64,000 nt of DNA, from positions 64,001 through 128,000 of the forward strand of contig CAVWBU010000047.1 in NCBI GenBank assembly GCA_963753345.1, read 5' to 3'. This document shows positions 3,124 to 63,595 of this stretch, in pieces. Under the pieces are notes generated by a model, which saw only the letters and a list, made by a program, of their open reading frames with translations, was not told where the DNA came from and made no database searches. How positions within the stretch are numbered: position 1 is the first letter of the stretch; each line of letters opens with the position of its first letter. The translations under genes were made by a program, and so were the position numbers. Source of the stretch: an uncultured Fibrobacterota bacterium. GTDB taxonomy: Bacteria > Fibrobacterota > Chitinivibrionia > Chitinivibrionales > FEN-1185.

Positions 3124-4464
3124 ATGAAACCCGTCTCACGCCTTTTAATCTCCGCATTGCTCGTTCTGCCAATATCCCAAATAACAATCGCCGACGAATT
3201 CTCACCCGACTCGATCACCGCCATCATGCGCAAGGTCGCGCAATACCGTTTGTCGCATGGCGTCAACAGCCTCGGCGACTGGTTCGCCAGCGGAACAAAC
3301 TGGGACGCGGGCGCGTACATGACCGGCATCTGCGGCCTGTACCGCCGCACGAACGACAAACAATACCTCGACAGCATCGTCAAGTTCGGCACGGGCGTGA
3401 ACTGGACCCCGGCAAGCAGCAATCCCGATAACGAATGTTGCGCACAGACCTTCTGCGAATCATATATGTTCGCAGCAGACACCACGAAAAAATATATGTA
3501 CCAGCCCTGGCTTGACCGCGTCACAGCGGATTTTATTACCCACTCGCCGTCGGGCCGCTCGTACTGGTACTGGTGCGATGCGCTGTACATGGCGCCGCCC
3601 GGCCTTGCCATGATTGCGTATATTACCGGACAAACGCGCATCCTCGACTCGCTTTACAAATGCTGGTGGGACGATGCGCAGGTGATCTACAGTGACACGT
3701 TCCACCTGTACTGGCGGGATCCGGGATACAAGCCGCCCAAGCTTGCGGCGAACGGCAAACCCATATTCTGGGCGCCGGGCGAGGCCTGGGTTCTGGGCGG
3801 CCAGGCGCGCATCCTCAAGTATACCCCTGTCAATTTCCACGGACGCGACTCAATGATAACCCAGTTCCGCGACCAGTTGACAGCCGTCGCTGCGCTTCAA
3901 CAGGGAGACGGGTTGTGGACCACGAGCCTTCTCGATTCGGTGCAGTTTCCCATACACGAAACAAGCTCCACCGCGTTTTTTTGCTTTGCCATGGCATGGG
4001 GCATCAACAACGAAATCCTGGATTCGGCAACGTTCACCCCGCCCATGCGCAAAGCCTGGTCGGGCCTTGTGCGGAACATCGGACCCGGCGGCATGCTCAT
4101 GTACTGCCAGACCGTGGGCCAGGAACCGGGCGACAACATGTTCAACAATTATTCCAGCTCGGAAGGCGAGGGCGCGCTGCTGCTTGCAGGGGAGGAACTA
4201 TACAAGCGGGTGACCGGCGCTGTGCGGGTCAACAGCAGGCCTGTCCAATCACCACAAAACGCACTACGACCCGAATATGCCGTTCTTGCAAATGTAAACG
4301 GCCGCATTGTTGTGCCGCAAGGCATGAACAAATTCGAAGTGTATTCAATCGACGGAAGAAAAGTCTGGTCCGGGGAGAGTTTCTCTGTTCGGGATGAAAA
4401 ATCGCTTGAGATGCCGAGGTCTGTTCGTGGCAACGGTATCTATGTGATAAAGTTCAGCAGATAG
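3124..4464 (+). CDS. Secreted GH105/GH88-family unsaturated glycuronyl hydrolase with C-terminal T9SS-like sorting domain
   Basis: Signal peptide; WYWCDALYMAPP, FWAPGEAWV, LQQGDGLW, ETSSTAFF motifs; C-terminal 'EVYSIDGRKV...GIYVIK'. Confidence 0.85.
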   Translation: MKPVSRLLISALLVLPISQITIADEFSPDSITAIMRKVAQYRLSHGVNSLGDWFASGTNWDAGAYMTGICGLYRRTNDKQYLDSIVKFGTGVNWTPASSNPDNECCAQTFCESYMFAADTTKKYMYQPWLDRVTADFITHSPSGRSYWYWCDALYMAPPGLAMIAYITGQTRILDSLYKCWWDDAQVIYSDTFHLYWRDPGYKPPKLAANGKPIFWAPGEAWVLGGQARILKYTPVNFHGRDSMITQFRDQLTAVAALQQGDGLWTTSLLDSVQFPIHETSSTAFFCFAMAWGINNEILDSATFTPPMRKAWSGLVRNIGPGGMLMYCQTVGQEPGDNMFNNYSSSEGEGALLLAGEELYKRVTGAVRVNSRPVQSPQNALRPEYAVLANVNGRIVVPQGMNKFEVYSIDGRKVWSGESFSVRDEKSLEMPRSVRGNGIYVIKFSR

Positions 4465-5686: not shown

Positions 5687-7928
5687 ATGAGAAAGGCAGG
5701 GTTAGCGGTTTTTTGTCTTGTCTTTGCGGTTTTCGGTCAGAGCATCAACATTTCCGGCAAGGTCTCAAACTCTTCGGCGCAAGGGATCGCAGGCGCAGCG
5801 GTGAAACTCTTCGGGGTTTCCTTGGCCTGCACCACCACGTCAGACGGTACATACCTCCTGTCCGGTCAGACCGGCATCTCAATGCCGGGTTACTCCTCCA
5901 AGGTTGATGCAATCAGTATCTCGTGCAGAAACAATTCTTTTGTCTTCAATGCTCCGTCATCCTTCCCGGCTGCGGTGAGGTTGTATGACCTGCGCGGCAG
6001 GATGGTCGCTCAGGTGTTCAGCGGCATTCTCAGGCCGGGTTCCACAAAGGTGCCGTTCCCAAAAAACGTTTCGGCCCGCGCCATGTTTATCCTGCGTGTG
6101 TCCGCCGGAACTTCGGACGCGGAATACACGATAGTGCCCGCGGCGGGCGGATCGTATGCGCTGCATGCCGGCGGCTTGACGGAAGGCAGACTGAGCAAGA
6201 CCGCTTCGGTTGACTGGCTGCAGGCCAGCAAGGCCGGCTATGCGTCGAGTATCCAGACCATAGACGCCTACACCGGGGTTGTCAATTTCACCCTGGGTGC
6301 GCTTGCAAACCCGGATTTCGGGTCGAATGTTTATGTTTTCGATCCCTCCATGGCCTCGATCCAGAATGTTATGGACGGCCTCAATAGCTCAACCGGACAA
6401 TTCAGCACCCAACGCACGGCATACCTGTTCAAGCCGGGGAGTTACTCCGTGACCGTAACGTGCAATTACTATATCCAGGCCTATGGCATGGGACTGTCTC
6501 CCGAAGACGTGCAGATAACAGGGGCGGTACAAAATTTAAGCGGAGGCCTCACGGCTTTCTGGCGCGGTGCGGAAGGTTTTTCCGTTACGCCGACAGGCGG
6601 CACCGATACGTGGGGTGTGTCGCAGGCCGACCCTTTCCGGCGCATGCACGTAAAGGGTGCTTTGAATCTTTCGAATGGCGGGTCCAGCGGCGGCTTCATG
6701 GCCGACTGCAAAATCGACGGCGCGATCAACCCCGGATCACAGCAACAATTTTATTTCCGGAACAACACCCTGGGCGGCTGGAGCGGCGGAAACTGGAACA
6801 TGCTCTTTCAGGGATGCGACAATCCTCCAGCGGAGAATTTCCCCGGTGGAGCCATTACCGTGGCAGCCAAGACGCCGCTTGTCCGCGAAAAACCATACCT
6901 TGTTTTTGATGCGTCGGGCAATTACTCGGTGTTTGTTCCTGCATTGCGCACAAATTCGCAGGGAACCACCTGGTATACCCAGACGCCCAGCGGCGAGTCT
7001 TTGCCGATCGACCAGTTTTATGTCGCCTTGTCCGCGATCGACAACGCAGCCACCATTAATGCGGCGCTCGCTCAGGGCAAGAACCTGCTCCTCACGCCGG
7101 GCATTTACTCGGTGGACGCGCCAATTCTTGTCCAGCGTCCCGGCACGGTCGTGCTGGGCCTCGGCATGGCAACACTCAAGCCGAACAACGGCGTGGTCGC
7201 AATGAAGACCAGCGATGCAGGCGGCATTATCATCGCCAACATTCTGTTTGATGCCGGCACCGTCGAATCTCCGGCGCTCCTGCAAGTGGGCGACTCGGGC
7301 AGCGTGCGCGACAACAGCGCCAATCCGCCGTTTCGTATTCGATATTTTCGCCCGCATCGGCGGCGCCGGTGCAGCCCAGGCAAACGTTGCGGTGGTCCTT
7401 AACAGCAACAATACCATCCTTGATCATTGCTGGCTCTGGCGCGCCGACCATGGTGCAGGCGCGGGCTGGACAACGAATCCCGCTAAAACGGCCTTGTCGT
7501 CAACGGCAAGCATGTGATTACCTACGGCCAACAGGTTGAACATTTTCAACAGCACAATACCGTTTGGAACGGCGACTACGGGTCAGACTTATTTCTACCA
7601 GAACGAGCTTCCGTACGACGTTGCCACAGCAATCCGACATTCATGGACTGGAACCAAGGACGGATATTCGGCCTATTACGTGACCAACGGCGTTACCAAT
7701 TTCACTGGCTGGTGCCTGGGCATTTATTCCTTTTTCAACAAGGCGCCGATCATCGAATCCAATGCCATGGAAGTTCCCCGAGTGTCGGGTATCAAGATTC
7801 ACCATGTCGTCACTTACTCTCTGGGCAGCGACCAGGGCCAGATTACGCATGTTGTAAACGATACCGGAGCAACGGCGAAATGGGGCGCAACGCCCATGAT
7901 AAGGTTCGGTGACTATGTAGGACATTGA
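5687..7928 (+). CDS. Secreted GH55 exo-beta-1,3-glucanase (SacteLam55A-like), paralog 1; frameshifted in this sequence
   Basis: PDFGSNVYVFDPSM, FKPGSY, FWRGAE, VSQADPFRRMHV, REKPYL, DHCWLWRADHG, YQNELPYD motifs spread over several frames (shifts near 7330, 7500 and 7585). Confidence 0.85.
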
Positions 7929-7959
7929 TTTAGCGCGAAGACATGTTTTGAAAAGTTGG

Positions 7960-7986
7960 AAGGGTGATCGTGAGGTCACCCTTTTT
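7960..7986 (+). terminator. Intrinsic terminator
   Basis: AAGGGTGATC-GTGA-GGTCACCCTT plus T-run; same hairpin at 10498. Confidence 0.7.
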
Positions 7987-8173
7987 ATTTCCTCGGAAAC
8001 CGCTTGGTGGTGAGCTTTGCCGCCCAACGTCAACCCGGCATCAAAATCATATTCCTCTTTTTGAAAAATATCCCCTATTTGAAACAAAATAAGTGGAATA
8101 AACGGTTGAATATCCTTATATTATCAGCGGAGGGGCAATTTCAAACACTGCGTGAGGGGGGCAATAAGGAGGA

Positions 8174-10445
8174 ATGGTGAGAAAGACAGTTTTAAGCGTT
8201 TTAGTGTCAGCGGTTGTTCTAAGCTCATTTGCCCAAAACGTTAACATTTCAGGAAAGGTCTCCACCACTTCAGGCGCTGCAATTTCAGGCGCCGTGGTCA
8301 GAATCTTTAATACCCCAATGGCATGCACCTCAAAAACCGACGGGACCTATCTGCTGGTCGGGTCAACAGGAATTGCCGGATCCGGAGCGACCGTCTCCCG
8401 CACGAACAGCATCATGTACCGGAACGGTTCGTTCATCTTCAACGTTTCATCACCAACACAGGCAAGCGCGAACCTTTACGATCTGGCGGGACGTTTGGTT
8501 GCCAAGGTTTTTAACGGCAGGTTGAATCAGGGATCTGCGAGCGTCCCGTTTTCATTCGACCGCCTGGGACACACCATGCTTGTCCTGCGCATCAAATTAG
8601 GTGATGCAAGCTCAACCCGTATTTTGAACCCCGCGGCAAGCGCAGGCCTTGCAATCACTCAACAGTCCCTGGCGAATGGTGCTTTGGCAAAAATCGCGGC
8701 CGTTGACTGGCTGCTGGCGGTTAAGTCCGGCTATGCATCTTATATGCAGACCATCGATGCCTACACCGGCGTCATCAATATCACCATGACCGCGCTCTCA
8801 GGCACCGCCCCAAATTTCGGACCGAACACGAGTATCTTCGATGCGTCAATGTCGTCTAGCTCGATCCAGTCCGTTCTTGACGCGGCGCACGCTGCATCAA
8901 GCCAGTTCGGCACCAACCGAGCCGCATTCTTCTTTAAACCCGGCAGCTATACCGTGAACATCACGGTCAGGTATTACATGCAGGCGTATGGTTTGGGAAT
9001 GTCTCCCGAAGACGTGCAGGTAACGGGAACGGTACAGGCGACGGAGGACGGCACAGGATCTTTCTGGCGCGGCGTGGAAGGCTTTTCCGTCAACCCGACA
9101 GGCGGGAACGCTGTCTGGGCGGTTTCGCAGGCCGACCCCTTCCGCCGCATGCATGTGAAAGGCACATTACTTATATGCAACAGCGGCGCCAGCGGCGGCT
9201 TCATATCCGATTCCAAAATCGACGGTGCGATAACCTCTGGTTGTGCACAACAGTTTTATATAAGAAACACCATCCTTAATGGAATCAATGCCGGCGGCAA
9301 TTGGAACTTTATGGTACAAGGCTGCGACAATCCCCCGGCCGAGACGTGGCCGACGGGCGGAATAAATGTGGTCGCAAAGACGCCGCTGGTGCGCGAGAAA
9401 CCGTACCTGGTGTTCGACAACACTTCCGGATTGTACTCCGTTTTCGTTCCGGCGCTTCGCACCAATTGCCAGGGAATCACGTGGGGCAACGGCAACTCCG
9501 GCCGGCGAACTGCTGCCTATCGACCAGTTCTATATTGCACTCGCAGCCACCGACAACGCCTCCACCATAAACGCGGCGCTTGCCCAGGGCAAGAACCTCA
9601 TTCTCACCCCGGGTATTTACGTGGTCAATACGCCGATCTATGTACAACGGCCCGGTACCGTTGTGCTAGGCCTGGGAATGGCCACACTGCAGGCGCAGAA
9701 CGGCTCAATTTGCCTCAAGACCGCGGACGCAGACGGCATCACCATCGCCAACATCCTGTATGAAGCCGGCTCAGGTGGTACTTCGCCTTGTTTGCTCCAG
9801 GTAGGCGATTCCGGCAGCGTGGCTGACCACAGCGCCAACCCTCCGTTCGTTTTCGATCTCTTCGCCCGCTGCGGCGGCTCTGTTGCCGGCCTGACAAAAG
9901 TTGGAGAGATTTTCAACAGCAACAACACAATCCTTGATCATTCCTGGACCTGGCGTGCAGACCATGGGGCGGGCGCGGGATGGAATTCTGACTCCAACGT
10001 CATAAGAAACGGCCTTGTCGTCAACGGCAACAACTGCATCACCTACGGACTGATGGTGGAGCATTGGCAAAAGTACAACACGGTCTGGAACGGCGACAAC
10101 GGCCAGCAATATTTCTATCAGAATGAGCTTCCCTACGATGTGCCTAACCAGGCGTCGTGGATGGAGGGCACTGTCCCGGGGATACCTGCCATCAAGGTAA
10201 CCGACCGGGCTACGAAATTCTACGGATGGGGACTGGGCATCTATTCCTACATGAGGGTGACCGCGATCACCACCACCAATGCGATGGAAGCCCCGAAGGT
10301 GCCGGGGATATCGGTCCATCGCGTGGTTACCTTTGCGCTTGGCGGAGACAAGGGAACGATCTTGCATGCAGTAAATGATACAGGAGCAGCCGTGCAGAAT
10401 CCGAGTCCCACCATGATCAGATTCGGGGATTATGTAGGACATTGA
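8174..10445 (+). CDS. Secreted GH55 exo-beta-1,3-glucanase, paralog 2; one frameshift near 9495
   Basis: Same motifs and architecture as paralog 1; both end in MIRFGDYVGH; AAGGAGG RBS. Confidence 0.85.
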
Positions 10446-11046: not shown

Positions 11047-11310
11047 TCAATATGATAGCAATTCCAATTTCTTCTTCCTCGGCAACCTCTTAACTTCGTG
11101 TTCCCGGCTCATCGCCTCGCCCCGCGTCCCGCATTTCTCAACATGCCTAAGCGCTACGGGCAAATGTGCCCTTGTATATTTCGCTCCCCTGCCCGCCTGA
11201 TGCGCGGCGAGCCGCGCCTGCACGTCATTTGAAATCCCCGTGTACAATGAACCGTCGCGGCATTCGAGTATGTAAAGAAACCAAGCTGCCTTCCGGCGTT
11301 TCTTCGTCAT
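11047..11310 (-). CDS. GIY-YIG nuclease (UPF0213, YhbQ/YazA-like)
   Basis: WFLYILECRDGSLYTGISND...RLAAH..GRGAKYTR...EAMSREHEVK; start overlaps the GH9 stop (TAATG). Confidence 0.9.
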   Translation of the reverse strand: MTKKRRKAAWFLYILECRDGSLYTGISNDVQARLAAHQAGRGAKYTRAHLPVALRHVEKCGTRGEAMSREHEVKRLPRKKKLELLSY

Positions 11311-13949
11311 TAAAAAATCGACAGTTTATTTAAGGTTCGTTCTCCTGCCTGCGTCATCTCAAGCAAATAGATCCCTTTGCTTAACGAGGATGTTTCAAGA
11401 ACAAGACCGCCGGCCGGGATGTTGTGGGTTTTGATCACCCGCACCACCCTGCCGGAACAATTCAGGAGCTTGACAACTGCGCCGACCTTTGCATCCCATC
11501 CGGAAAAGGCAAGCATGAAATTCCCATCGGCAAGTTTCTTTATGTTCATGCGCTTTGTGTGCAGGGAACTGGGGTTCGGGCCGATGGGCTGGCCAACGCT
11601 CACTCCGGGGCGTATGCCGTATAAAAATCCGTATAAGGCGATTTTCCCCCTCATGGTCTGCTGCGGGGTAAATTCGGAATGGGCATACACGTAACGGGTA
11701 TTGAAGTAGACCTCACCAACGGGCCAGGTCGAATTATCCGGATAGCTGAAGGCCGTCATCCAGCTTGGATTGCCCATCACCATGCCGCCGCCCCAATCCA
11801 CCACGTTGAAGTACGGCGTCATGCCGGGATGCTGGCCCGGAGTACCATCGTTCTGGCCGGAGATGTACATGGCGTCGACGCTGCGTTTTGTTGAAAGAGG
11901 CGTTGATGCCGTTGTCATCTGGATCAGGTTCGCCGGATTTCTGCCAAGTCCCCAGTCTGCTTCCAGTATCAGGGCATTCTCCAGAAAATCCTTGTCCGCC
12001 TGGGTTGTCGCAACCGAACGGGCAAGGATGGTCCGTTGAACATTCTGTTCGGTATGGAACCAGCCGGTATTATTATCCGTGGAGCGCCGTGAAGGCCTGA
12101 TGGTACTGTAGTTGGCCTCGCTGTTTTTCGCCTCGTTGATAATTGAGGCTTTCATGTTGCTGTAAAGCGTCGGATAATTTACCGTGCGGTTGGTGAAAAG
12201 ATACGCGGCGGTCGCCCATAGCTGGTTATAGGCGGTCACGTCGATAATTGTGGAAGTGGTATTGGTAACCTTGCTTTCGGCATTAATTTCGTTTTCGTAA
12301 ACCGTATTTCCCGTTACATTGTAAAGGTAGGCTGCGGCCAGCATCTTAAGGTCTCTGCCCCGCACAATTCCATCGCCGATACCTTGCTTGAAGTCCAGCA
12401 TCTGATCGGTTAGTCCGCCGGCATAATTGTAGGCATTGACGGCCGAGTCGCGATAGGTGTTCATGAGGGTCGTTTGACCGGCAATGCGGAACGCTTCGGC
12501 CAGCATGGCCGCGTTGGCTGCGCTGGCCCACGCTCCGATTGCGTTGGCGCCGGCCTGATAGAAAACATTGCTGCTGTTGGGGTTGGTGAGTCCGTAGCCA
12601 TATGCCTGTCCGTCGCGCAAATTCAGCCAGAAATCCACTTCGTTTCTGGCTTCGTCGATGATGTCCGGAATGCCGTTGCCGCTCTCCGGTATGCCGAGGT
12701 TGTCGTCGCCGATGGCGCCGTTTGTCAATATATAGGGAAGGAGTATGTCATAGATGTTTGAAATGTGGGTCATGTTCCTGTCCCAGTCGGCCGCGTCCGC
12801 ATGCCCGCCGATTGCCCGCTGGTTGGTCCTGCCGGTGGAATAGGGCAGCCCACGCATCGGGATTATCGTAGACGATCCCCGCCGGAAAAGGTCGCCCAGT
12901 TGGCATTGTTCGGCTCCATGGTGGTGATATACACCACCGTGCTGGGCGGGTTGACGCCCGGGATATACAACGGCCGGCGGGGAACCGGCCGCACGCCGGC
13001 GCTGTCCTGGCCGATGCGCATGTAAAAATACCCGCGCTCGTTTACCATAAACGGATCATGATACACATCATTGGCAATCTTGAAATCCTGGCTGCAGCCG
13101 ACGCCGTCAATTACCAGGCGGTAGGTGCCTGGCGCGTAGCTGCCGGTAAAATCCGCTTTCCAAACATTGGACATGGTAAAATTGTACCCCTGCGCTTCGC
13201 CCGCGCTTGCTTTCCAGAAAGCGACCGTGGCCACCTGCTGCGACGCTTGGGTGACGGCGTTATACAGATAAACATTGTTTCCCTGAAAACCTGTGTAATC
13301 CCTGGCGCCGCCGTTGCCCGTCCAGCAGTAAAGGTCTGCGGCTTTGATGGTCGCGGCGGTCGAATAGCCCACAAGGTTGACATGCACGGCTTCGGAACGG
13401 CTGTTGTAAATGTCATACGTAAACGTTTTTGAGGTGGAGTCGGCGTTGGTGTTTGCGTTGATCTGGAGCGTGTAGGTCTTTCCCTGCACCATGGAACTGG
13501 GCAGCTTCAGATAAATGGAGTGTTCCATGGTATGCTGATAGGCAAAATCGCTGCCGGTCCAATTGCCCTCGTACATGCCGTTGAGTTTTGATTTCCGATA
13601 GCAGTTAGTGGGCGAAAGGCCTGCTGTCCCGTACGCGGCATCGTCGGTTGAGGTCAGCTTCCAGGAGGCCGTCGCCACGGCATTGGCGGTATTGAGGGCC
13701 GTGCCATAGTTTACAATGTTGTTGTTGCTCGCATCGTGGCCGAGATTAAGATAGGCAGTCGGCCCCTGACCATTATCCACAAAGGTGACGTCCCCGTCTT
13801 TGAAATAGACCTGGAGGTAATCCTTGTCAACCACTTTCACTTCTGCAAGCATTGACGCCTGCAAATGTCTGAAAGAATGAAAGCAACAGGATACATCCCA
13901 GAATAGAAACGGCATTGCGTGCATTGAGGGGTTGTCTTTGGCTTTGCAT
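11310..13949 (-). CDS. Secreted GH9-like glycoside hydrolase with N-terminal Ig-like domain and C-terminal T9SS-like domain; frameshifted
   Basis: AAGGAG RBS and ATG at 13949 with signal peptide; VHVNLVGY, PGTYRL, GGHADAADWD, PESGNGIPDIIDEARNEVD, LGRNP, HSEFT; shifts near 13865 and 12845-12875. Confidence 0.8.
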
Positions 13950-14049
13950 GCGTGCTCCTTTACTTGATGTTTTCTGGAGGGTACGGTCATCCGACAGAAG
14001 CAAAATAGTTCCATGCGGAAGAGGGAGTAATTTAATAAAGAGAAAGATC

Positions 14050-61111: not shown

Positions 61112-62437
61112 TTATCGCGCCGGAGCGGCCGAGGGCGGCCTTGTCGCGCCGGAATCCGCGGGCGCGGGCTGCGGTTTTTGTTCAACCGGTTTATTCACAG
61201 CTGTTGAGTCGGATTTCGGCGCGGGCGCGGCGGCAAGGCTGTCGCTCTGAGGCAGGGCCTGCGCCGCCTTTTCGATAATCGCTGGTGAACCGGCCGCAGC
61301 CGTATCGGCGTGCGCCGGCGCAGGAGGTTGCGCCTGTGGCGGCTTCACCTCCGCCGGGCGCGCTTCGGCCGGACTGCCTGCCGCCGGTTTCTCCCCCGCC
61401 GGCGGTACGGCAGCGGGAGGTTTTTGGGGGCTGTTCTTGACAGAAGCAGCTTTTGGCCTGGGCGGCGGGAGGGTGTAGGTGAGCGCGAAGTACGGGTTGA
61501 ACTCGATGTCGCTGACAAGGGAGGTCACGTCGCACGACATGTCGAAGCTGAGCATGGCAAAGCGAAGGCCGGCGCCGAAAGAGAGAACGTCCGTTTCCCA
61601 GTTGAACCGCTTTCCTATGCGTACGGCGATGTATTTCGTGGGCCACGCCTCGATGCCGATCGGAACCGACACCCGGTCAAAAAACTGGGAGGCCGACGTC
61701 AGCTTGTTCCCGACGTCGCGGTACACGATGTCCGCGGCAACGGTGTAGGCGACCTTCAGCAGCGTGTCGGAATACGCCGCGCCAGCGCGGCCGCTGCGCG
61801 GCAGGGGCGCGCCGCCGCCGAAATATCGCGTCTCGTCAAGATCGCCCGTGGTGGAACCCAGCTGAAAAACCGCGGCACCGAGCGTCAGCTTCTGCGGAAT
61901 AAGGCGGTAGGTGAGGCCGGCCGACACCGAAATCCCGTACCCCGCGTACGACACGATTCTTTCCTGCAGGCCGTTGAGGCACAGCCCCAAACCGAGGGCC
62001 TCGCCACGGTATCCGAAGCAGAGTGACACCATGGTGCCGTCGTACGATCCCGGAACGTTGTAGTCGGGGCCGTTGCGATAGTCGGCCGGAATTATGCCGC
62101 CGATAAACTGGTTGGTAACGGCAGCGGCCGCAAACATATTGAGAAAGGTCCAGGCGCCTTCGCAAAAGGCAATGGTGTTCTCCGACGGGAGCGGCGCATA
62201 GCCGAGGTTGAGATACGGCCGATCCGAAAGTGCGGGTGACGCGGGATTGTAGGACGCGAAGCCGGAGCCAGCAAGCGCGGTTCCCGCATGACCCATCGCG
62301 ACCTGGCGCGGCGACGCAAGGAAATCGAGGAACTGGAACCCCGCCATCGACTCTTCCTCGCTCTGGCCAAAGGCACGGAAAAAGACCGCCGGAAGCAGTG
62401 CGGCAAAGAAGCAGATTTTTTTGCTTGTCCGGTTCAT
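61112..62437 (-). CDS. PorV/PorQ-like outer-membrane barrel with Pro/Ala-rich tail
   Basis: FQFL..ASPRQVAMG...YNPA; barrel strands; low-complexity C-terminus. Confidence 0.75.
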   Translation of the reverse strand: MNRTSKKICFFAALLPAVFFRAFGQSEEESMAGFQFLDFLASPRQVAMGHAGTALAGSGFASYNPASPALSDRPYLNLGYAPLPSENTIAFCEGAWTFLNMFAAAAVTNQFIGGIIPADYRNGPDYNVPGSYDGTMVSLCFGYRGEALGLGLCLNGLQERIVSYAGYGISVSAGLTYRLIPQKLTLGAAVFQLGSTTGDLDETRYFGGGAPLPRSGRAGAAYSDTLLKVAYTVAADIVYRDVGNKLTSASQFFDRVSVPIGIEAWPTKYIAVRIGKRFNWETDVLSFGAGLRFAMLSFDMSCDVTSLVSDIEFNPYFALTYTLPPPRPKAASVKNSPQKPPAAVPPAGEKPAAGSPAEARPAEVKPPQAQPPAPAHADTAAAGSPAIIEKAAQALPQSDSLAAAPAPKSDSTAVNKPVEQKPQPAPADSGATRPPSAAPAR

Positions 62438-62479: not shown

Positions 62480-63595
62480 CTAAAATCCGTACACGAGATC
62501 CAGCTTCTGGTCCACGCCCGCCCACACCTCGTCGGTGGTGAGCGCGTAATTGAGGGTGAGCCCCTTGCGGATTGCATTGAGGTCGACCCCGAAGCCCGCG
62601 GTAATCCTGAATGCGAAATTCTGCCAGTAATATTGCCAATCCGAGGCGATATAGCGATTAATGGTGATGTCGCCGATGCCCGCGCGCACCCTGAACGTCT
62701 GCCAGCGGCGCCACTCGAACCCCGTAAACAGCACTGCTTCCATGGAGCTGAGCCGGGTGAACGTTCCGTCAACGATATAGCCGTCGACGTCGCAGCTCCA
62801 GGTGAGAGGGTATCCTGCAAGCAGGCCGCGATAGGAACTTGCGAGCACGAATTCGGGCAGCACCATGTCGGTGATCGACGTCGGGCTGCCGTATCCCTCG
62901 TCGCCGGCCCCGTAATTCTGCTCCGCTGAGGACGACACCTGCCAGTTCATGGCAATTCCGGCCGGCGCGCCGGACAAAAGCTGGAGCGGGCTTATGTCGC
63001 GGACCGCCAGCGCAAGCGTCAAGCTGTCCGCGACTTTGTACTGGACTGCGAGCGAAAATCCGCCCACCGCCGTGGCGTCCGAATAGACAAGCGAGGTGCC
63101 CACGTACGACGTGGGCAGGTACTGGTAGTAAAAACCGATGGACAGACCCGCAGACAGTCTTCGCGTGATGAGATAGCTGAGCGCGGCCTTCACCGTGAGC
63201 GTGGTGTACGCGCCGTTGTCAAGCTTCTCCTCGGACGCATTGTAGAGGTCGTCGAGAAACGGGTCGCCGCGGTACAGCGCCCCGATACCGATGCCGACGC
63301 GCGGCGGCAGTTTGAATTCGAGGGAGGCGAAGCCTTCGGTGCGGCCCTGCGAGTACAGCCCGGTTCCCGCGGAAAGTGTTCTTTTGTCAAGGAGGCTCAA
63401 TTGCGCGGGGTTCCACCACGTGGCAAAGTACGACGGCGCCGCAGTCTGGCCACCGCCCATGGCGGTCGCCTGCGCGTCTGCGGGAGCGCGCAAATACGCC
63501 CCCGCCTCGCCGCCGATCTGCGCATGGGCCGCGCACGCGCCGCACACCAGTGCGGCGGCGAAAACGTCCCTACTTCGCAACAATGATTTTCCCAA
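62480..63595 (-). CDS. PorV/PorQ-like outer-membrane barrel
   Basis: GAYLR..A.A.AMGG...WWNPAQL; ends in YGF. Confidence 0.72.
   Translation of the reverse strand: MGKSLLRSRDVFAAALVCGACAAHAQIGGEAGAYLRAPADAQATAMGGGQTAAPSYFATWWNPAQLSLLDKRTLSAGTGLYSQGRTEGFASLEFKLPPRVGIGIGALYRGDPFLDDLYNASEEKLDNGAYTTLTVKAALSYLITRRLSAGLSIGFYYQYLPTSYVGTSLVYSDATAVGGFSLAVQYKVADSLTLALAVRDISPLQLLSGAPAGIAMNWQVSSSAEQNYGAGDEGYGSPTSITDMVLPEFVLASSYRGLLAGYPLTWSCDVDGYIVDGTFTRLSSMEAVLFTGFEWRRWQTFRVRAGIGDITINRYIASDWQYYWQNFAFRITAGFGVDLNAIRKGLTLNYALTTDEVWAGVDQKLDLVYGF

Follow-up and report, generated by a model that had tools for sequence, protein, structure and literature searches.

A homologue of the type IX secretion sorting domain is nested in an N-terminal module of Fibrobacterota enzymes

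Introduction

Type IX secretion system (T9SS) substrates are defined, and predicted, by a C-terminal domain (CTD) that is cleaved off. Could a domain of this family also work from within the N-terminal part of a protein? The question is raised by two tandem genes for glycoside hydrolases of family 55 (GH55-1 and GH55-2) of an uncultured Fibrobacterota bacterium, found on a stretch of 64,000 nucleotides (assembly GCA_963753345.1, contig CAVWBU010000047.1, positions 64,001 to 128,000) that is called the window throughout and whose numbering we use. Both encoded proteins start with a signal peptide that is followed at once by a module of ~200 residues, and this module is a CarboxypepD_reg-like beta-sandwich interrupted by a complete homologue of the T9SS type A CTD, ~75 residues long. 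Both architecture and homology of the module are secure. Whether the module has a T9SS-linked role, in carrier docking, in export and/or in uncleaved retention at the surface, is evenly balanced on the comparisons and models presented below. The module is possibly an unrecognised means of enzyme export or anchoring, and its carriers include the model rumen cellulose degrader Fibrobacter succinogenes S85.

The two GH55 genes of the window

Both genes are on the forward strand, with ATG start codons at 5687 (GH55-1) and 8174 (GH55-2). The CTD homologue, referred to as the insert, is not at the extreme C-terminus of the ~750-aa proteins, and the domain that surrounds it is referred to as the outer domain. 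Signal peptides were assigned by eye and from an alignment of 30 modules (A1, with model numbering that counts from GH55-1 residue 19), not by a predictor. The features of the two genes are:

5687..5737 (+): GH55-1 signal peptide, residues 1-17, predicted cut before Gln18 (sequence reading and A1, with a Gln shortly before the first strand in most rows)
5741..5872 (+): GH55-1 outer domain, first half, residues 19-62, four strands (Pfam CarboxypepD_reg, AlphaFold2, Foldseek)
5912..6136 (+): GH55-1 nested T9SS type A CTD homologue, residues 76-150 (TIGR04183, alignment to the CTD hidden Markov model (HMM), isoelectric point (pI) 10.87)
6137..6208 (+): GH55-1 return strand (~residues 157-161) and low-confidence LxKxAA linker, here LSKTAS (models, A1)
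6209..6319 (+): GH55-1 outer domain, second half, residues 175-211, three strands, DWLQASKAGY... (AlphaFold2, A1)
6320..7928 (+): GH55-1 catalytic region, frame-broken in the assembly (comparison with an intact orthologue)
8174..8233 (+): GH55-2 signal peptide, residues 1-20, predicted cut before Gln21 (sequence reading and A1)
8237..8362 (+): GH55-2 outer domain, first half, residues 22-63 (Pfam CarboxypepD_reg 18.6 bits, A1)
8405..8629 (+): GH55-2 nested CTD homologue, residues 78-152 (TIGR04183 19.4 bits, CTD HMM, pI 10.9)
8630..8695 (+): GH55-2 return strand and LAKIAA linker, residues 153-174 (A1)
8696..8797 (+): GH55-2 outer domain, second half, residues 175-208 (A1)
8798..10445 (+): GH55-2 catalytic region with one frame break near 9460 (the open reading frames (ORFs) 8174-9763 and 9366-10445 overlap in different frames)

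Both genes end with the same terminus, ...MIRFGDYVGH*, at the end of the GH55 domain. From window position 9450 on, GH55-2 matches the PDB entries 4pew, 4tz1 and 4pex (E 3.6e-81 to 3.1e-80; 'putative secreted protein' in the match table), which we take to be GH55 exo-beta-1,3-glucanases, and the C-terminal part covers residues 244-547 of the 561 residues of 4pew (E 3.6e-81). As the terminus and this coverage reach the end of the catalytic domain, the GH55 proteins have no C-terminal CTD and end directly at the catalytic domain, as the initial annotation of the window had it. Orthologues of the same genus are intact open frames of 750-784 aa that consist of module and GH55 domain and nothing further.

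GH55-1 has at least three frame breaks between ~7330 and ~7600 (frame shifts near 7330, 7487 and 7583-7668), which are single-base indels in comparison with a 93%-identical intact orthologue (750-aa open frame); GH55-2 has a single frame change near 9460 (region ~9440-9480). All breaks are downstream of the module and none is in a long homopolymer; the two genes could be real pseudogenes, or the breaks could be assembly errors.

The insert is a homologue of type A CTDs

When GH55-1 residues 1-218 are used to search the proteins of its own genome, 37 matches are found, many of which span nearly the whole query. Jackhmmer, started from the same residues against the 21,161 six-frame ORFs of at least 90 aa of the genome, identifies 33 ORFs with the whole module and, in addition, 104 ORFs that match HMM positions ~52-150 alone and do so at their extreme C-terminus (10 other matches are partial, and some of these are pieces of further frame-broken module genes). 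GH55-1 HMM positions 76-150 align column by column with these 104 genuine C-terminal CTDs, which stop at HMM positions 149-152, exactly where the inserts continue.

The two GH55 inserts themselves score below the TIGR04183 cut-off of 23 bits (GH55-1: residues 83-142, 16.3 bits; GH55-2: residues 85-119, 19.4 bits), and a Pfam scan of the isolated inserts has no relevant match even at E 10. If the two are regarded alone, the resemblance to CTDs could be taken for chance or for a low-complexity beta-strand artefact. This explanation is already contradicted by the searches and is vanishingly improbable: domain E-values in the iterated search, at most 1e-5 and often below 1e-13, tie the 33 modules to the 104 C-terminal CTDs, four paralogous inserts of the same genome score above the TIGR04183 cut-off (28.6, 28.3, 25.9 and 24.9 bits), as does the insert of the F. 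succinogenes protein P0166 (25.3 bits), and the structure models are confident.

The window also contains two canonical C-terminal CTDs for comparison:

4324..4458 (+): C-terminal CTD of a GH88/105 protein (TIGR04183 18.6 bits; Pfam Glyco_hydro_88, E 4.3e-52)
11316..11516 (-): C-terminal CTD of a GH9-like protein (Pfam Por_Secre_tail, residues 448-514 of 515, 31.1 bits)

The genuine tail of the GH88/105 protein is thus also below the TIGR04183 cut-off; the GH9-like tail has 22.5 bits with the NCBIfam model and exceeds the cut-off of 27 with Por_Secre_tail. The initial annotation had likened the inserts to the tails of these two proteins, named GH105 and GH9: the tails are indeed CTDs. A Pfam scan of the 515-aa ORF found no GH9 domain. 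What had been read as one GH9 gene (window 11310-14014, -) consists of two adjacent ORFs on the same strand, 12863-14014 and 11310-12857, possibly one broken gene; the sole match in a PDB search is the endoglucanase 3x17 (E 2e-7, residues 6-87).

Inserts and C-terminal CTDs were compared residue by residue on the common HMM (33 inserts and 104 CTDs, with CTD denominators that count the rows aligned at the respective column). The glycines G104 (33/33 inserts, 102/103 CTDs) and G118 (33/33, 101/102) are shared almost without exception, R/K105 is present in 30/33 inserts and 83/103 CTDs and Y134 in 23/33 and 88/101. A basic residue near the domain end, K/R148, is found in 23/33 inserts and 55/71 CTDs; GH55-1 has Tyr at this position and GH55-2 has Arg. 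A sharp difference is seen in the glycine of the GxY motif (HMM position 132), which is present in 97/101 CTDs but only in 4/33 inserts, 21 of the 33 having Gln instead, indicating that the inserts are a separate, diverged subfamily. This position (GH55-1 residue 132, window ~6080) is a clean marker that distinguishes nested from C-terminal copies. The charge is also that of a CTD: median pI and net charge are 10.0 and +5 for the inserts and 9.8 and +4 for the CTDs, in contrast to 5.3 and -1 for the halves of the outer domain.

Structure of the module

Pfam CarboxypepD_reg (PF13620) matches the outer domain only in part: residues 22-71 of GH55-1 (profile positions 2-61 of 82, 23.7 bits) and residues 25-62 of GH55-2 (positions 2-43 of 82, 18.6 bits). 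Neither match reaches the curated cut-off of 32.3 bits, and both are partial because the domain is interrupted.

The AlphaFold2 model of the whole module, calculated from A1, has a mean predicted local distance difference test value (pLDDT) of 82.4 and a predicted TM-score (pTM) of 0.50. In this model, outer strands are contributed by residues 1-44 and 157-193, while residues 57-145 form a separate sandwich of eight strands, with low-confidence linkers on both sides. Four outer strands precede the insert (E2-9, E20-23, E28-31 and E37-42; pLDDT 87-97) and three follow it (E158-163, E170-174 and E178-180; pLDDT 92-94): the outer domain is modelled as a seven-stranded transthyretin-like sandwich, with the CTD homologue placed in the loop between strand 4 and strand 5. 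Foldseek finds carboxypeptidase transthyretin-like domains with the whole model (5aq0_B with TMt 0.64, 2nsm and 3mn8), and the alignment to 5aq0_B has 190 columns on a target of 82 residues, thus it spans the insert. Within A1, G6, G36 and G86 are invariant and K153, A156, D158, G166 and Y167 are conserved to at least 90%.

Beyond the end of a canonical CTD the models have one extra strand (E86-90 when the insert is modelled alone, E139-143 in the whole model), which probably leads the chain back toward the host domain. It is followed by the LxKxAA motif (GH55-1 residues 169-176, window ~6191-6214): its K and A, and the D that follows, are at least 90% conserved despite a pLDDT below 50 in this linker.

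Modelled alone, the insert is an immunoglobulin (Ig)-like sandwich of ~75 residues with a pLDDT of 86.8. It superposes on solved T9SS CTDs with VIA-align Z scores of 7.0-7.4: 7.4 for the RemA CTD 8gl6_D (TMt 0.70, root mean square deviation (rmsd) 2.5 over 75 residues), 7.3 for the mirolase CTD 8qb1 and 7.3 for the NucA CTD, and its Foldseek matches include the CTDs of RgpB (7pq4) and RemA (8gl6_D, 8gl8_D) with E-values near 1e-2. The fold is generic, however: the CTDs stand among many unrelated Ig-like domains with Z scores of ~7, the best VIA-align match is the DUF3244 protein 4g5a (Z 9.2, rmsd 2.1 over 76 residues) and neither the whole model nor the insert model has any Foldseek match at E <= 1e-3. 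The predicted fold agrees with that of a CTD without being specific to it, and taken alone it is weak evidence.

Models, TIGR04183 matches and the jackhmmer family thus bear out the domain order of the initial annotation, which had read from the letters a carboxypeptidase-regulatory-like sandwich behind the signal peptide of both proteins, a TIGR04183-type domain nested in it, an L(S/A)K linker and then the remaining strands of the first domain, and had expected a CTD-like fold for the insert.

The module is N-terminal and excludes a C-terminal CTD

In all 33 module ORFs of the genome the module is N-terminal, and in 31 of these it is immediately preceded by a start codon and a signal-peptide-like N-terminus; the remaining two are truncated where the ORF begins. 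With TIGR04183 there are 147 matches in the genome at E <= 0.01: 127 end at most 15 aa from the stop codon, 8 end at 19-23 aa from it and 12 are internal, and all 12 internal matches fall in module ORFs. When both detectors are pooled, a C-terminal CTD is found in 177 ORFs of the genome and the module in 33, and the overlap is zero. A crude signal-peptide detector marks 1084 six-frame ORFs of at least 250 aa, a clearly inflated number, 119 of which have a CTD; we make no statistical claim from these numbers.

Pfam domains of the 31 module ORFs and the two GH55 genes are mostly those of glycoside hydrolases (nine GH64, six GH3, four GH30 and two GH55, in addition to GH12 and GH116), but also include a Fib_succ_major domain and DUF2271, and several proteins have no Pfam match beyond the module. 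Most catalytic families carry either the module or a CTD; a single paralogue family alternates, with one module member, two CTD members and two more members with C-terminal TIGR04183 matches.

Some module genes are arranged in tandem. Four of GH64 type stand in a row at G000:C49:247714-255096 (+) and three at C41:146168-150527 (-); at C18:79075-84571 there are three adjacent module genes and a fourth ~4 kb further on (88402-92637).

Distribution of the module in Fibrobacterota

The A1 profile was searched against 1.84 billion representative proteins, and the best 150 of the 636 matches at E <= 1e-30 were examined. Among these, 64 proteins carry the whole module N-terminally, in alignments that begin at residues 1-36, and none of the 64 has an additional C-terminal match to our own CTD-type HMM. 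The mutual exclusivity of module and C-terminal CTD, which had been put forward as a check on the initial annotation, is therefore seen in both data sets (0/33 in the genome, 0/64 in the library). In the 65 library matches that consist of a single stretch, no Por_Secre_tail is found at the C-terminus at E <= 1e-4, and Pfam identifies GH30, GH64, GH12, GH3, GH99/71, RCC1, LRR, PA14 and DUF2271 domains.

The remaining library matches among the best 150 are long proteins with CarboxypepD_reg repeats, some of which end with CarboxypepD_reg and CTD. In P0075, P0126, P0140 and P0147 of the library, and in a 652-aa ORF of the genome itself (C24), many CarboxypepD_reg repeats are followed by a terminal CarboxypepD_reg and a CTD; the nested arrangement may have evolved from such a CarboxypepD_reg-CTD tandem.

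In the searches, which covered Fibrobacterota genomes and the protein library, relatives with an assigned name are from Chitinivibrionales, Fibrobacterota metagenome-assembled genomes or Fibrobacter. A scan of 121 sampled Fibrobacterota genomes with eight closer GH64-type modules, which detects close relatives only, has a match at E <= 1e-15 in 97 genomes, with up to at least 24 matches each in genomes of the same order. Whole-module matches are present in five of five closed or near-closed genomes, including one that its protein names identify as F. succinogenes S85. The module is thus a family across the phylum Fibrobacterota, and what the initial annotation called this lineage, with two genes at hand, is the phylum.

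The module proteins of F. succinogenes S85 are three CE1 esterases: FSU_2468 and two others that stand in tandem. P0166 has an internal TIGR04183 match (residues 84-145, 25.3 bits) and no C-terminal CTD; because of this internal match its RefSeq name is 'T9SS type A sorting domain-containing protein'. The automatic T9SS type A name is thus now given to proteins that match internally only. Residues 22-62 of P0151 and P0166 also weakly match positions 1-41 of TIGR04056 (SusC/RagA TonB-linked transporter), with 19.6 and 21 bits, far below the cut-off.

T9SS machinery and predicted docking to PorV

The genome encodes SprA (404.6 bits summed), a PorU-type sortase (494 bits, cut-off 420) and three genes of the PorV family above the cut-off. 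A PorV-family protein at G000:C27:105931-108321 (-), in an open frame of 797 aa, has an insertion of ~400 residues behind its first strands. Open frames of this long form (789-955 aa) are seen repeatedly across the order; the short form (~390 aa) is found in some genomes only. Two weak PorV-family matches are close to the end of the window, at 61529-62341 (-) and 62990-63496 (-), with 54.4 and 32.8 bits (cut-off 90).

Lauber et al. 2024 (PMC10994853) describe that the SprA pore accommodates the folded type A CTD, on loops of PorV and with ~40% of the CTD surface buried, that shape is what is recognised of folded type A CTDs in a plastic, hydrophobic SprA/PorV pocket, that the conserved CTD motifs specify the fold rather than contacts and that a near-invariant Lys near the C-terminus touches PorV. 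According to PMC12618676, PorV recognises all type A CTDs.

Complex prediction with the short PorV homologue (alignment A4) and the whole module (A1) gives a score of 0.81 (runs: 0.82, 0.80 and 0.81), while the best of three controls has 0.00; the mark for a pass is reached by 116 of 157 solved complexes and by 2 of 215 mismatched pairs. Contact agreement across the runs is at least 47% and the pLDDT of the partners at least 64. All named contacts are in the insert (80, 82-90, 108-115, 117, 119, 128, 130, 132-137 and 140), and fall in the conserved DLxGR hairpin, in the loop that precedes the Tyr strand and at the end of the last canonical strand, together with the subsequent turn.

The short PorV paralogue was considered as a dedicated partner of the module and was rejected: it was not found with our query in four genomes of the same genus that have between 22 and at least 24 module matches each. 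The long PorV form is found in all four.

Envelope proteomics of F. succinogenes

FSU_2468 offers a view on the fate of the module. In Suen 2011 (PMC3079729), FSU_2468/Fisuc_1948 is a CE1 esterase with signal peptide and without basic terminal domain, and Raut 2019 (PMC6851124) equates the basic terminal domain with the T9SS CTD and reports that CTD peptides are missing from mature envelope proteins. In supplementary file 2 of the latter study FSU_2468 takes up eight contiguous rows with three distinct peptides: one belongs to the catalytic domain, and residues 28-45, in the outer domain's first half, account for two. The protein is part of the cell-envelope proteome, and in supplementary file 3 its pSortb prediction is outer membrane. 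It follows that the envelope-associated protein retains the N-terminal part of the module. As no more than three peptides were recorded, the lack of insert peptides is uninformative. The proteomics data do not support the removal of the module as a cleaved signal.

The peptides also bear on the possibility that the precursor is cut in the linker after the insert, at the LAK site that the initial annotation had pointed to. The insert would then be the true C-terminal CTD of a small N-terminal fragment, and the enzyme would ride along non-covalently, held by the split outer sandwich. The strong conservation of LxKxAA in a linker of low pLDDT would fit, and envelope peptides from both sides of the insert are also allowed by this explanation. 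No sign of cleavage was seen, however; none of the three distinct FSU_2468 peptides spans or ends at the linker, and LxKxAA may simply start the next strand of the outer domain. We know of no precedent for such piggy-back export and regard a cut in the linker as very unlikely.

A possible role in type IX secretion

How could the module act? Each GH55 precursor is headed by the Sec signal peptide and, at once, by the composite module. Within the SprA translocon, the type A carrier PorV would receive the folded, basic, looped-out CTD homologue like a C-terminal CTD, and the enzyme would thereby cross the outer membrane and/or be held at the cell surface. The internal position of the insert makes its removal by the PorU sortase improbable, and the module would stay on the mature protein. 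We infer PorV recognition, T9SS dependence and lack of cleavage from the combined evidence: a T9SS-linked role agrees with the strict position of the module, with its mutual exclusion with C-terminal CTDs, with the charge and residues that the inserts have kept and with the range of cargo. Homology, the complete T9SS of the genome and the docking model, which may only reflect solved CTD-PorV complexes, are further indirect support. Like CTD cargo, module cargo is diverse (GH64, GH30, GH3, GH55, GH12, GH116, Fib_succ_major, CE1-type esterases, GH99/71, LRR, RCC1, PA14 and DUF2271). In its most specific form, which we put forward tentatively and at somewhat less than an even chance, the proposal is that Fibrobacterota have a second class of type IX signal: a complete type A CTD looped out of an N-terminal carrier, which may be read by PorV/SprA without a free C-terminus and kept as surface tether.

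Several observations weigh against this role. The scores of both GH55 inserts below the TIGR04183 cut-off, the absence of Pfam matches, the loss of the GxY glycine and the generic fold have been described above. The paralogues are not independent of each other, and GH3 enzymes in other phyla are often periplasmic. SprA is present in 118 of the 121 Fibrobacterota genomes, so that co-occurrence of module and SprA is uninformative. Because CTD-PorV complexes have been solved, the docking pass may show likeness only; the insert has no free C-terminus, and the region that would bear one is part of the predicted PorV contact. Moreover, the PorV used for docking is the short form that our query did not find in the four module-rich genomes of the same genus.

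The insert may instead be an exapted, CTD-derived Ig-like domain without type IX role, serving for example as spacer or stalk, as binder of glycans or of the cell surface, or as periplasmic or outer-membrane tether, while the enzymes travel by another route or stay periplasmic. The inserts have a signature of their own (Gln for Gly at HMM 132, the extra strand and LxKxAA), the cargo of the genome leans to beta-glucan enzymes (the GH64, GH3, GH30 and GH55 proteins counted above), the first half of the outer domain weakly resembles the SusC/RagA N-terminal domain and FSU_2468 keeps its N-terminal peptides, all of which speaks for such a domain, as does the generic fold. A spacer or carbohydrate-binding module is, however, not expected to stand directly behind the signal peptide in every case (97/97), nor never to accompany a C-terminal CTD (0/97), and cargo outside the genome is not glycan-specific (LRR, RCC1, PA14). 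The inserts have also retained CTD hallmarks, in particular the basic charge and the late Lys/Arg, and the PorV docking model passes. Exaptation is quite conceivable, if on the doubtful side. Its more specific variant, a beta-glucan-binding module, is weakened by the LRR, RCC1, PA14 and esterase cargo elsewhere.

If the module is indeed a type IX signal, secretome predictions for Fibrobacterota overlook a whole class of substrates, among them the 33 ORFs of this genome and the three CE1 esterases of F. succinogenes S85. It would also mean that the translocon reads a folded shape and not a chain end, that T9SS targeting is not intrinsically C-terminal and that there is a display route for proteins with a C-terminus that cannot be extended. 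Should the connection to the T9SS not hold, the module would still be a clean and widespread example of a sorting domain that was reused by insertion into another domain.

Comparison with known systems

A literature search for an internal or N-terminal T9SS CTD found no paper. Searches with the accessions and locus tags of module proteins returned Suen 2011 and a transcriptome paper only, and the N-terminal module is not mentioned in the available portions of PMC3079729 and PMC6851124.

The closest relative of the insert is the T9SS type A CTD itself (TIGR04183/PF18962; RgpB 7pq4/5ag8, RemA 8gl6_D, NucA 8glk_D, mirolase 8qb1). The two have homologous sequences, an Ig-like sandwich of ~75 residues, the Gly, Tyr and Arg fold columns, a late Lys/Arg and a basic charge in common, and both occur on Sec-exported enzymes and proteins of surface type, in an organism that has SprA, PorV and PorU. 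The insert differs in its place, within a loop of another domain and ~75 residues away from the N-terminus, has an extra return strand, mostly has Gln in place of the GxY glycine and is probably not cleaved.

The basic terminal domain (Fpm-1) of F. succinogenes shares phylum, domain family and basic character with the insert; unlike the insert it is C-terminal, its peptides are reported missing from mature proteins and, in the published list, FSU_2468 is given without it.

By structure, the best match of the insert is to the DUF3244 proteins of Bacteroides (4g5a, 3d33, 3sd2). These are small stand-alone proteins with no assigned function that are 14% identical to the insert, and the likeness is known from structure only.

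An Ig-like sandwich nested in a small beta domain is also known from the hook-capping protein FlgD, to which the initial annotation had likened the expected fold and which has an Ig/Fn3-like domain inserted in a Tudor-like domain. Host domain and system differ, and FlgD_ig has no match in any of the family scans (window proteins, isolated inserts, module ORFs and library relatives).

The closest parallel to the proposed behaviour is that of PorU and PorZ of P. gingivalis, which have uncleaved CTDs and stay bound to PorV or PorQ. These CTDs are recognised, not removed, and hold the protein on an outer-membrane barrel, which is by analogy what the module may do. They are still C-terminal, and they belong to parts of the machinery, whereas the module would do the same for dozens of enzymes.

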